Positions 15,701-36,700 of a DNA stretch of 64,000 nucleotides are shown one piece after another. The notes under the pieces are model-generated. The model did no database searches, had not been told where the DNA came from, and worked only from the letters and a program-made list of their open reading frames with translations. Every line of letters begins with the position of its first letter. Position 1 is the stretch's first letter. A program made the translations under genes and the position numbers. Location of the stretch: NCBI GenBank assembly GCA_964016885.1, contig OZ024756.1, forward strand, positions 27,900,001 to 27,964,000, read 5' to 3'. The DNA comes from Eledone cirrhosa. Lineage: Eukaryota.

Positions 15701-18700
15701 TTACGAGAGGGGTTTGGCCAATTGGCCATACTATACCCTGCTCATAAGCCGATCCATATTTACGAGCTGCGTGGACTTGTTATGTGGAAGGCCTGGTCTG
15801 GCCAGTTAGCACGTTGAACCTTTCTCACAGCAGCACCATTATTTTGGCTGGGTTTGATAGCTGCTGGATGCCTTTCTTTACAGCAACCTCATTTTTACAG
15901 TGTGGGTCTGGATGGTCTCGATATGAGGAGGGTTTGACCAGTTGGCTGCGCCATACCCTACCCTGCTCATAGCAGAACTGTAGGGAAGGACATGTTATGA
16001 GGAAGGTCTGGCAAATTGACTGCACCAAACCTTGCATATAGCAAGACCTGTATTTTGACTGGGGAAAGTCTGGCCAGTAGCCTCGCCATACCTTATTCAT
16101 ACCGGACATAAGGACACCTGGATGTCCTGAATACCAACCTCATTTGCAGTGTGGAACAGAGTGGATCTGTTATGAGGAGGTTCTGGCCAGTTGGCTGCCT
16201 TGAACCTTGCACATAGCAGCACCTGTGTTTTGGCTGCGTTTTACAGCTGCTGGATGCTTTTCTTTGCAGCAACCACATTTGTGGGACTGGGTGGTCCTGA
16301 TATGGAGAGGGTCTGGCTAGTTGGCCGTGCCAACCCTTGTGCAAAGTGGGAACTGTTTTAGAAAGATGGTATGTGTAGAAAGCAATGGGTAAGAAAGTTG
16401 TGGAATTAAGGGGCAATGTCTGCAAAAGAACTAACCGGAAGGTGGTGGATATGGCGAGGGTGAATGGGATGCAGAGACGATAGAGCCATGAAGTTTTTCT
16501 CAGTTCATTTATTTATTTATTTATTTTTTTTTTTTTCAATTTTGTACATACAGATGATGATGAAGCTGTTGATTACGAAATGTCGCCCCACTACAGGAAA
16601 TCACATACGAGCACACCGTCCCCTCCTCCTCCACCTCCACCACCACCACCACTTCCTCCTCGCTCACATCAACAGAACAATGGAAATGAAGTCAATAAAC
16701 TGACGACAAACAAGACGAAGGTGAAACTGGTTCAACTTCCTTGGAAAAAGATTATCAGAGATCCAGGTAATATTATATGATAATTATATTGACTAGCAGA
16801 AAAACCACCCTTCGGGTGGTTTTCTGCTTAGCATGTGTAGTGTGTATATTGATATTATACGCAGGTATATATACATGTAGATATGATACATCAAATAAAA
16901 TCGTAATTGACAATATATAATACATAGAAATTGAACGAAGACTGAGTTACACTGTTTTATGTAATCAGTAACGTAATCCATGATATATTAAAAAAGACGA
17001 TATTATATATAAACTGCATTAGGAGAAAATTAGCGACAGAAAATTAGTATGTTTATTTAAGCGATCGCCACCGGAAGTGTTGACATTTCAGAAATTTTAA
17101 AGAAGTGAATCTTTAAATAAACAAAATATATTTAATCATTAGCCACGAAATTTAGTAAATAAATTATGTAATATTCATTCATTATTTATTCAAAGTAATC
17201 CAACTTATTTTACTAATGGGATAAAAAATATAAACTGTACGCAGACCCGCACTCCTTACTTTATTATAGTTTAGATGGTGGTGGTGGGGGGGGGGATAGT
17301 GGCGATGGTGGTGTTGGTGGTGGTGGAAGTTGTGGTGGGTGGTGGTGATGGCAGTAGAGGTGTTGCTGGTGATGGTGGAAGGGGTTATGCTGATATGGGG
17401 GTGGGGGGGGGGGGGGGGTGATAGTGATGATGCCAGTGGTGGTGTTGCTGGTGGTGATGATGGCAGCGGCGGTGGTGGTGATGGTGGAGTTGGGTTGGTG
17501 TTGATGGCAGTGGTGGTGGTGGTGGTGGTGGTGGTGATGGTAATGATGTTGATGTTGATGGCGATGGTGGTGGTGGTGGTGGTGGTGGTGAAGGTGGAGG
17601 TGGAGGTGGTGGAAATCATCAAACAAAGACATATGTACTCCAAGAACGATGTCATACACATGGATGATGATTGCTGCGTGAAGAAGTGGCAGGAAATCCC
17701 AGTGGAAGGAAGCTGAAGTAGATGTAGACCTAGAAAGACCTGGGCAGAGGTGACAAGAGCTGAACTCAAATCACTGAGACTCACAAAAGAGATAGCAAAG
17801 GATGTGGCAAATGAAAGGATGCCATGCTGAGAAGGACCCATCCAATCCATGCTGGCATGGAAAAGTGGATGTAAAAACAATGATGATGAAGTTACTGACG
17901 ACAGTGATGAATATGACCTATGTCTTTCTTTGAATATATATCAACCTTTATGTTAAAACTCCAATAAGTATAGTCTGACTATATTTCTAAAATTTAATAT
18001 GTAAATCTTATGAATTACATCAAAGATATCCATGTAGAAACTTCCTAAGTGGCTTCATATCTTGTGCATTCTTGCCTATCTTGCATGTCTTCCAGTTCTC
18101 TCATCTCTCTCATCTGTTCAGTAGTCTGGTAGACAGTACTTTGGGGCGCCACAGATGACTGCCATCATAACCCCACCACCACCATCACCACCGCCATCAT
18201 CACCACCAACAACGCCTCTACTACCATCACCACCACCTACCAGCTCCTTCCATTCCTCTTGTCTCTCGTCCGTCCCCATGGTTACACCCACCCAGCCAGT
18301 TCTCTCATCTCTCTCATCTGTTCAGTAGTCTGGTAGACAGTAGTTTGGTGCGCCACAGATGACCTGGCAACCAGCTCCTTCCATTCCTCTTGTCTCTTTG
18401 CCCTCCTCACGGTTGCACATAGCTTCATACCTGTCCATTCCGGGATGTTGTTCTCCCATCTATTTTTCTGTTTGCCTCTCTTCCTCCCGCCTTGTACTGT
18501 TCCCTGCAGGACTGTCATGGCAAACCCTGAAGATCTTGTCACATGCCCATGTTACTCTTGCATTAAAACATATATTTGAAACTATTGCTTGAAATCCATA
18601 CCTACAAATTTTTGCTAAAGAACTGTTTCTACTTTTGGCACAAGGCCAGCAATTACCCAATACATTACTGGTACTTTATTTTATCAACCCCGTAAGGATG

Positions 18701-33700: not shown

Positions 33701-36700
33701 GGCAATGTGAAATATATTGGACTAGGTGTAATGTGAGATATATTGGACTGGGGGCAATGTGAAATATATTGGACTAGGTGTAATGTGAGATATATTGGAC
33801 TGGGGGCAATGTGAAATATATTGGACTAGGTGTAATGTGAGATATATTGGACTGGGGGCAATGTGAAATATATTGGACTAGGTGTAATGTGAGATATATT
33901 GGACTGGGGGCAATGTGAGATATATTGGACTGGGGGCAATGTGAGATATAAGGCCACCCAGTTTGGGAACCAAATCCATGTCGATATGATTGTGAGACAA
34001 ATACCTTAAACCTTATGTCACATGCTTCACAACACTACTTAATTTTAACTTTATACTCAACTCTTGAAGGATGGAAGGCAAGATAGTATCGGGAGGATTT
34101 GAATTGTCACTTTAGGTGGAGTTAGCTAAACAGTATAAGATTTTTTTCTGATATTATAATAAGTCTTCCAAGCCAAACTTTCATTTCCTCAATCTTACTT
34201 CATTTCTATTTCTCTTCATTCAGCCCTGGAGACTTTAGATGAACAGAAGAAATTTTTGCAAGATACCAAGAACTATAGTTTGAAAACACAGACTTATTTC
34301 TCCTTTGATAATAGTAACAAAGTAGGTTGTTGTTGTTTGCTGCTGTTACTGTTGCTACTTCTTTTTCTTCTTCTTGTTAAATGATGATGATGATATATAT
34401 ATACATATATATATATACACACACGGTCAAATTCCGTTATAAAGAAATTCATGGGATATAAAAAAAATTTGTTGTAACGAAAATTTCTTTATAATGAGAT
34501 TGATCTAACACACTGAGCATATAGCCAGGGATGGAAAACAATTTCATTATAACGGAATTTTACCTGTGTATATATATATATGGAGGCACATGGCTTAGTG
34601 GTTAGAGCATTGGCTTTGCAATTGAAAGGTTGTGAGTTCAATTCTCAGACCGGATGATGTGTTGTTTCCTTGAGCAAGACACTTTATTTCACATTGCTCC
34701 AGTTAACTCAGCTGTAGAAATGAGATGATAGGGACTAGGGTCCCTATCATTCCACTGTAAAGTGGTCGTGGAGGTGCCACGGCAAAAAAAGCACCCAGCA
34801 CTCACTGTAAATGAGGTTGGTGTTAGGAAGGGCATCCAGCTGTAGAAATCAAGCCAGAATCAGTTCCCGTCCCACCCTTGCAAGCAGGGAAAGGCGGACG
34901 TAAAATGATGATGATAGTGATGATGATATGTATGTATGTAAAAGGTAAACAGAAATAACAACACAATCGGTAGAGTATATGGAAGGAATATATTAAGTTA
35001 ACGCTTGAAATAGCAGGAAGAGGGTTTTAACGTTTTGGATGCTAGTCCTTCATCAGAAGAAAGAATGAGAAATTTGATACATTGAAGGGACGGGCAGGGT
35101 GGAATTGGGAAAAATGTTTTTAGAGAAAAATAACAGGTCCATTCATGTTGCCATTTCATATATATATATTAGTTTTTGAAATTTTCAGTTTTATTTCATT
35201 TCATTTCTGTACAATTTTTAGGAATCAACTCAACTCTTCTTCTCATTGTGGGCTCAGTTTTTACAAGAATCTAAGTACTATTGGAAAATTGCTCATCATC
35301 GGCTGGCTGAGGAACGATTTCGTAATGACATGAATCAAAAGATTAAGCTGGTAAGTTAGATATGTCTTCAAAGGAACCTTTATGTAGTCACTCAATTTTC
35401 TAGAAATAGCAACCAAAAATTCATTAATTTATGCCCTACAGTGTTAAATAATAGAAAGGATACATTAGATAATGTAGTACTAGATATACTTCTCCATGTC
35501 AACATATATGCTGTATCATTCCTGCTTTCTTCTGTCTCTCTCTATCTATCTCCCATCACATGTCATATGCTCTACTCCTTCCGTTCTCTCTCTCCCTCCA
35601 TTAAGAGGTTTTGTTTAACCTGATTCTTTGCTATGATCATCATAGCACCTGTCTTTTTTACAGTTATTTCCATGTTTGAGATTCCTACAATTTTATGAAA
35701 TATAATAGAACATCTTTGACCATAGTTCATCATCATCATGAAGCCTCAGCTGAAATGGACTCAACAATTGATTTCCACGTGGGTTTGTCGTTCATTGCCG
35801 TTGCCAAATCCTGGATTTCAATACCAGCATCTCTGGAGATGACATCGGGATAGAAGAGCTTGTGCCTCCTGTTATTAGTTACTGTTTGTGGTTTCCAAAG
35901 CACTAATGGAGACACAGCCTCATAGGTGGCATGATGGCAGTCGCCAGCAAATCTTACTCTCCTTTTACGTACAACGACAGATATGCATGGGAGGCCGGCA
36001 GCTTATGTTTTGAATGTGTTGAAGTAGGCGAGTGTGTCATCAAGGAGCTTTTGTTGTTTGGATGAAAGTGTTCATGTTTAACTTCCATATAGCAAGATTG
36101 GTTGAATTGTTACTTGGAAAAGTCTGATCTTGGTGTGGTTGGAAAGATTTGATTTGAGTGCCAAACTCGATCCAACTTGTTGTGAGTTAGGCTTGATGGA
36201 TCAGAGATGATTTGAGGCTAAACAACAATAGCTGATTGATTGATTTAATTGTTTGATGTTAGTAACCTGGCACATCAGCCAAGTCAATGAAGCAGTCAAT
36301 ATGTGGTCAGTAAATATGCTAGAAATAGCACACAAATCTCTGTTGGATCACTGTCTACCATTTAAAAAAGCTCACATTGGATAAGGAGTCTGATAAACAC
36401 ACTAAACTGAATAAAAGATATGATGGTCACAGATAAAAAATGGCTTAATAGATGAGATTGATCTAGACTGACCTTGAGCTAAACAACAACCACTTGTAAT
36501 TCAGATGTGAGAAGATTCTATGAAGTAGATTACTCGGTTTAATGTTGCAGCTAGAGTTTTCCTCTTTACTAACAGAAGTACAAGGCCAGAAATGAAGAGG
36601 AATGGGTTAATTGTTTAAATTGGTGGCAGCAGCAGCAGTAGTAGTATCAGCAGTAGTAGTACTAGTAGTAGTAATAGTAGTAGTTTTAGTAGCAGCAGTA

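Follow-up and report, generated by a model that had tools for sequence, protein, structure and literature searches.

The 64,000-nucleotide stretch analysed here (hereafter, the window) corresponds to positions 27900001-27964000 of contig C17 (OZ024756.1) in the 3.0-Gb genome of the cephalopod Eledone cirrhosa. It contains an FMN-type formin gene of 17 coding exons on the plus strand (9214-39261), which together form a single 1782 amino acid open frame with one terminal stop. The encoded FH2 domain keeps the motifs of formin dimerization and lacks the residues through which other formins contact actin; judged from the aligned sequences, this residue loss is phylum-wide and not species-specific. 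Our preferred reading, to which we assign a probability of about 0.5, is that the gene encodes a dimeric pseudo-formin that neither nucleates filaments nor tracks their ends, and that likely cross-links or anchors existing filaments via motifs in its tail. An initial annotation, made from the letters of the window, had described an intact, spliced, FMN-derived gene with dimer motifs and without actin-binding residues. The present analysis supports that description beyond what was first proposed, as the loss extends across the molluscs.

Actin-contact residues of the FH2 domain

The knob Ile of the FH2 domain is regarded as near-invariant, and its replacement by Ala is the standard means of inactivating a formin. 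In Bni1, K1359, I1431 and K1601 are named as actin-binding, and fission-yeast Cdc12 mutants are described that remain dimeric, the Ile mutant being the most severe (PMC3192862). Capu I706A is reported to be unable to assemble actin (PMC4436832). It is from such mutants of other formins (Cdc12, Capu) that we infer a loss of nucleation, and from mutants of this kind together with the retained motifs that we infer dimer formation; the terms 'nucleation-dead' and 'dimer-competent' used in the initial annotation have the same basis.

The knob exon of the window gene (20539-20675, +) carries IDPAK at 20551 and a His codon (CAT, 20581-20583), and the post exon (27236-27368, +) carries GNHLN at 27276 and a Phe codon (TTC, 27360-27362). 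When aligned with hmmalign to a profile built from other FMNs only, His and Phe fall in the knob-Ile and post-Lys columns with posteriors of the top class. The corresponding Gln and Leu of the cuttlefish orthologue align to Ile and Lys of mDia1 and DAAM1 in a phmmer comparison with solved structures. The nearby Ile (20578) and Lys (27366), considered earlier as possible occupants of the canonical columns, align respectively to a Gly column and two columns beyond the post-Lys column. A register slip at the knob is ruled out by the high posterior of the profile alignment. The placement of His and Phe proposed in the initial annotation is thus confirmed by profile and structure-based alignments; its statement that A-to-I editing cannot restore either codon also holds, since CAT can at most become CGT and TTC has no A.

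For the wider comparison 175 proteins were submitted, of which 168 gave an FH2 match and 160 were long enough to be retained; one mollusc-clade protein with a partial FH2 (P0233) was excluded. The 36 mollusc-clade rows cover bivalves, gastropods, chiton, cuttlefish and the window, and are cluster representatives that should not be counted as independent. Ten different residues occupy the knob-Ile column in these rows (S 11, V 6, Y 5, A 3, T 3, F 3, H 2, Q 1, I 1, L 1), and its entropy lies at the 95th percentile of clade FH2 columns, although the FH2 of the clade is in other respects well conserved (median 1.24 bits). The post-Lys column holds Gln in 19 rows, Lys in 3 and ten other residues, with Arg in one row. 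Ile and Lys occur together in none of the 36 rows, versus 118 of the 119 other FMN rows in which both columns are filled, so that the substitutions are indeed found in other molluscs, as the initial annotation had proposed to check, with identities that vary. A second alignment, on the profile of other FMNs, returned the same residue counts with high posterior.

The dimer motifs are almost uniformly present in the clade, with Trp1 of the lasso in 34 of 36 rows and both Trp2 and G-N-x-x-N in all 36. Direct reading of the window places LPWKK at 16736 and AIWNS at 18916, giving Trp1 at 16742 (exon 16554-16766, +, which also holds the start of the lasso) and Trp2 at 18922 (lasso exon 18896-18968, +); the lasso Trps and GNHLN are therefore intact, as had been noted. 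The lasso Lys column, which is basic (Lys or Arg) in 28 of 36 rows, contains Val in the window (same exon as Trp1, by alignment) and Thr in cuttlefish, and these two proteins lack all three of lasso Lys, knob Ile and post Lys. More broadly, 22 of 72 FH2 columns conserved in canonical FMNs fall below 30% in the clade, many through conservative swaps and six within the region of the knob helix, and many invariant FH2 positions are specific to the mollusc clade. The net charge of the domain has a median of -13 in the mollusc clade, is 0 in the window and has a median of -6 in other FMNs. The cuttlefish FH2 matches the Pfam FH2 model over positions 5-370 of 372 (E 4.5e-51), and its predicted structure (predicted local distance difference test 87.5, predicted template modelling score 0.79) gives, among the matches listed, significant E-values to formin FH2 structures only. 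Over 410 columns the window FH2 is 57% identical to that of the cuttlefish orthologue.

This orthologue, a cuttlefish-cluster protein of 1885 amino acids with DEP and FH2 domains, was retrieved with the last exon and matches 16 of the 17 exons (tblastn). Its first 959 residues, searched against 1.84 billion representatives, returned 13 proteins that aligned in several stretches and scored 275-497 bits, versus at most 174 bits for other FMNs. Together the two protein searches yielded orthologues from bivalves, gastropods, chiton, brachiopod and nemertean, and the annelid Owenia was added by architecture; their database names are FMN2, formin-J-like or uncharacterized. The post exon as sole query found no homologue and, against the genome, only itself. 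All best FH2 matches outside the clade are FMN-type, the FH2 identity between mollusc clade and canonical FMNs being about 25-30%. In a quick tree (57 of the 160 rows) the mollusc clade is separated from canonical mollusc FMN with a Shimodaira-Hasegawa-like approximate likelihood ratio test (SH-aLRT) value of 100; the trees contain FMN-type rows only and so display this split, not the FMN subtype. The Lingula and Tubulanus orthologues retain Ile and Lys, and that of Owenia has Leu and Lys. Three further proteins with Ile and Lys intact, P0149 (Clavelina), P0041 (Branchiostoma) and P0036 (Nematostella), may branch deeper within the second FMN lineage. The clade DEP is recognized in the one from Clavelina, a tunicate (E 6.5e-17), so that FMNs with a DEP domain may be older than the protostomes.

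A canonical FMN paralogue was found in the same genome by DNA pattern, on contig G000:C1407. It has both Ile and Lys along with roughly nine polyPro tracts, and an Octopus bimaculoides protein matches its exons with 70-96% identity. On the minus strand of this unplaced 76-kb contig one FH2 exon appears twice, at about 26090 and 25611 (some 480 bases apart) with common upstream intron sequence, which may be a local duplication or an assembly artefact. At least eight other formin loci were located in the genome by Pfam search (C6, C3, C2, C4, C28, C7, C1135).

Tail motif, N-terminal domain and FH1

The tail that follows the FH2 domain ranges from 650 to 1550 amino acids across the clade. In the window it comprises 815 amino acids, encoded with the stop codon by the last coding exon (36814-39261, +; homologue search, tail alignment), and is low-complexity and poorly conserved overall, with conserved islands and no Pfam family. 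One of these islands, ISSLIERFE (38623-38649, +), fits the short motif VxxLxxxFE at positions 1, 4, 8 and 9; it was spotted in the tail alignment first and matched to the literature afterwards. By its published description, this motif (SFM) binds F-actin in the cleft between actin subdomains 1 and 3 (SD1/SD3), and dimeric ITPKA bundles filaments via it (PMC13364712). The same SD1/SD3 cleft is occupied by the FH2 knob helix (PMC4660058, PMC7221352). Of 37 tails, 27 match the strict pattern [VI]xxLxxxFE and 34 a looser one, where shuffling gives expectations of 0.14 and 1.28, respectively. The matches all occupy one position in the alignment. Of the three tails that escape the looser pattern, two have Trp for Phe and one is without the motif. 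In a 30-row tail alignment, L, I and F of the motif account for 3 of only 7 invariant columns. None of the Lingula, Tubulanus and Owenia orthologues has VxxLxxxFE (0/3).

The C-terminal Spire-binding FSI is a defining FMN feature (PMC11231147), yet its pattern was found in 0 of 37 clade rows versus 60 of 109 other FMN rows. No conserved SxIP was seen in the 7 clade tails inspected. The C-terminal end is hydrophobic in 33 of 37 rows, and in the window the last nine residues (39232-39258, +) are the same as in cuttlefish by alignment; we take this conserved C-terminus to resemble a PDZ ligand. Other conserved tail motifs include FKSWLKRE at 37441-37464, a TSTP-type motif behind the actin motif and, outside cephalopods, a VPxYKAK...NYENQ block.

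At the other end of the protein, the first coding exon found (9214-9754, +; phase-0 acceptor, tblastn with the cuttlefish orthologue E 9e-29) encodes a DEP-like domain at about 9265-9435. Its Pfam DEP score (E 3.5e-4, 20.9 bits) is below the cut-off of 32.7 bits, which the brachiopod (Lingula) orthologue exceeds with 37.8 bits. A clade DEP profile matched 37 of 40 clade rows, the window with E 2e-26, and the profile of a clade-specific coiled coil matched 39 of 40; in the window the coiled coil (SYSDNEKQL, 13710-13736) lies in an Asn-rich exon (13326-14016, +; tblastn, clade profile). Six proteins of 195-380 amino acids (P0062, P0097, P0104, P0117, P0124, P0140) carry the clade DEP, most with the coiled coil and none with FH2, and are maybe fragments or short isoforms. 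In actin-nucleating formins the FH1 carries polyPro tracts that bind profilin. Here the FH1 has shrunk to PPxLPPR, and PxLPPR, presumably an SH3-ligand pattern, precedes the FH2 in 34 of 36 rows. A run of at least five Pro before the FH2 occurs in 1 of 37 rows, that of the window, whose 10-Pro run ends as PPPLPPR (16643-16663); the other 36 have none. The single polyPro tract by which the FH1 had initially been described is thus real in the window and peculiar to its species. That description had missed the DEP-like domain, the reduction of FH1 to PPxLPPR, the FSI loss and the 815 amino acid tail with its F-actin motif match. The DEP-like domain, the tail and the match to a side-binding motif point back to actin.

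Gene model and other features of the window

All 17 exons are bordered by AG/GT. The exon count given in the initial annotation stands, but its span of 16554..35350 covers only part of the gene. The exons not yet mentioned, all on the plus strand, are a linker exon (11249-11520), an FH2 linker exon (20128-20218; tblastn, exon model), three FH2 exons for the knob end and coiled coil (21582-21661, 24556-24672, 25993-26041; tblastn, exon model) and five further FH2 exons (29479-29607, 31946-32014, 32759-32837, 34224-34321, 35222-35350; tblastn, exon model, pattern); the last of these is not followed by a Spire-binding FSI end. The acceptor at 11249 is the least sure part of the exon model: an AAG acceptor was picked for frame, alternative in-phase acceptors are present, and the 3' part of the exon has 37% identity to cuttlefish. 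P0140 uses the other frame of this exon, as if from an acceptor at 11296. With the N-termini of the cuttlefish orthologue and of P0140 as queries, no start exon or start codon was found in the window or in the 60 kb upstream. Splicing is indicated by a 642-letter contig of run X1, which covers 16665-16763 and then 18893-18968 without mismatch, reproducing the predicted junction between the Trp1 exon and the lasso exon; contigs of runs X2-X4 continue into that intron, beyond 16766. No RNA run was listed as containing the last coding exon, an absence that speaks neither for nor against its transcription.

Introns of the gene contain tandem arrays at 27999-28808 (123 bases), 29931-30344 (48 bases) and 33522-33950 (26 bases). 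Fragments resembling long interspersed nuclear element (LINE) reverse transcriptase were recognized by eye from translations at 8668-9171 and 44309-45916, on both strands. Elsewhere in the genome, an intronless divergent actin gene (L038, G000:C3:145352751-145353860) encodes 376 amino acids that are 76-79% identical to the conventional actins of the genome.

Proposed mechanism, rival explanations and known formins

In the mechanism that we favour, the FH2 ring, without lasso Lys, knob Ile and post Lys, would serve as a dimer scaffold presenting two side-binding motifs on long tails, with filament cross-linking or tethering as the outcome. The tail motif would bind the actin cleft formerly used by the knob helix, and the DEP domain, PPxLPPR and the hydrophobic C-terminus would set membrane or partner targeting. 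As to its history, the gene would descend from an ancient FMN paralogue that already had a DEP domain and whose brachiopod and nemertean forms have kept Ile and Lys. On the mollusc stem both residues would have disappeared and the motif arisen, with canonical FMN remaining the nucleator. The general form of this proposal is that all molluscs carry an overlooked pseudo-formin subfamily in which the knob stopped binding actin and a new tail motif took over on the mollusc stem; a nucleator would have become a dimeric cross-linker positioned by its DEP domain, and the brachiopod and nemertean orthologues would still be in the active ancestral state. We advance it tentatively, at a little under even odds.

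Several observations weigh against this account. Knob changes are mild in some rows (Val 6, Leu 1, Ile 1), Dreissena combines Val with Arg, and oysters retain the post Lys; together with the basic lasso residue in 28 of 36 rows, such mild changes make residual activity outside cephalopods possible. In about nine rows the tail motif departs from the consensus by Asp, Asn or Trp, in one it is absent, and a match to so short a motif may arise by convergence. Gain of the motif and loss of the residues are one event on the tree and do not lend each other independent support. The link of the clade to Owenia, Lingula and Tubulanus has SH-aLRT values of 81-89 in the quick, midpoint-rooted tree (FastTree 0.93), and for this reason the orthology is also based on the common DEP, coiled coil and tail. 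Finally, the splice evidence comes from one of 16 introns in one study, from a run (X1) that has no RNA label on record, and the junctions beside the His and Phe codons lie outside it.

On a different account, the protein would nucleate filaments weakly or with help from its tail, or would cap barbed ends; its FH2 ring would hold filament ends by other contacts while the tail motif replaced the lost cleft contact. The wholly retained FH2 fold and length, the basic lasso residue of most non-cephalopod rows, the Val or Lys kept in some, the 10-Pro run of the window and the sometimes mild effect of post-Lys mutations (PMC3192862) are all in its favour. We nonetheless consider it unlikely, though to be taken seriously, as no clade row has both residues, the Ile column is mostly polar or aromatic, the window and cuttlefish lack all three residues, and 36 of 37 rows are without a 5-Pro run. 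More doubtful is an actin-independent signalling scaffold, in which DEP, coiled coil, PPxLPPR and C-terminus would recruit partners, the FH2 would only dimerise and the tail motif would bind something else. The near-constant presence of DEP, coiled coil and PxLPPR, the clade-specific invariant FH2 positions that suggest a new partner surface, and the example of FOZI-1, which lacks actin binding (PMC3392944), are consistent with it. However, the best-conserved element of the tail agrees with a published F-actin motif in each of its four key positions.

Among the roles named in the initial annotation, that of scaffold fits the data. A dominant-negative role, in which the protein would pair with canonical FMN and reduce its activity, is less likely, and we regard it as improbable. 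In its favour, lasso and post motifs are shared with the canonical FMN present in the same genome, and plant formin heterodimers have been reported (PMC6982070). Against this, the FH2 identity to canonical FMNs is low and the conserved tail motif would go unexplained. Formin mutants without actin activity can still affect microtubules, but a microtubule-binding formin is very improbable here and fits poorly with the acidic clade FH2 (window 0), the absence of the basic FSI tail from all 37 rows and the lack of a conserved SxIP in the tails inspected. A decaying pseudogene or assembly error, to which the unlocated start codon and the long branch of the cephalopod pair might point, is effectively refuted by the 17-exon open frame, the spliced contig, the FH2 identity to cuttlefish and full-length orthologues in four mollusc classes.

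Relative to the FMN subgroup (Cappuccino, vertebrate FMN1/FMN2, canonical mollusc FMN), the clade shares the FH2 type, the GQADGF post and a C-terminal helix. It differs in lacking the knob Ile, the post Lys and, in cephalopods, the lasso Lys, in having only PPxLPPR as FH1 and no FSI, and in its N-terminal DEP-like domain and 650-1550 amino acid tail. Pruyne 2016 (PMC5047451) noted a node dividing mollusc, annelid and cnidarian FMNs that was not followed up, and classed the limpet orthologue as FMN. The second FMN group of that study, oyster LOC105320770 and limpet LOTGIDRAFT_237086, consists of orthologues of the window gene; in its alignment the Ile column holds Phe (oyster) and Ala (limpet), the limpet post Lys is replaced by Thr, and its accessible text makes no mention of residue losses, DEP or tail motif. 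No prior description of these three features in the clade was found in the literature, most subscription papers being outside the scope of the search. C. elegans FOZI-1 offers a precedent for an actin-dead FH2 (PMC3392944). FOZI-1 is FMNL-derived and nuclear, with a truncated knob and zinc fingers, whereas the mollusc clade is FMN-derived, with a DEP domain, a knob of full length and a tail predicted to bind the sides of actin filaments; a Pfam scan found no zinc-finger family in clade proteins. The four key motif positions are shared with SFM proteins (ITPKA/F-tractin, Lifeact, FGD4, USP54), among which the ITPKA homodimer bundles filaments, and the main text of PMC13364712 gives no formin example. 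Unlike in those proteins, the clade motif sits behind an FH2 dimer, and its binding to actin is putative.

A whole phylum thus appears to retain a formin without the knob Ile (in limpet even with Ala) under clear constraint elsewhere. The brachiopod active-type, oyster half-lost and cephalopod proteins, the last without all three residues, form a natural series for formin roles that would not involve nucleation. The FMN split of 2016 would be explained, and a newly defined SFM motif would be tied to a formin. For genes of this clade, database names like FMN2 or formin-J are misleading, and orthologues in Aplysia, Lymnaea, oyster and cuttlefish make the proposed dimeric cross-linker directly testable.

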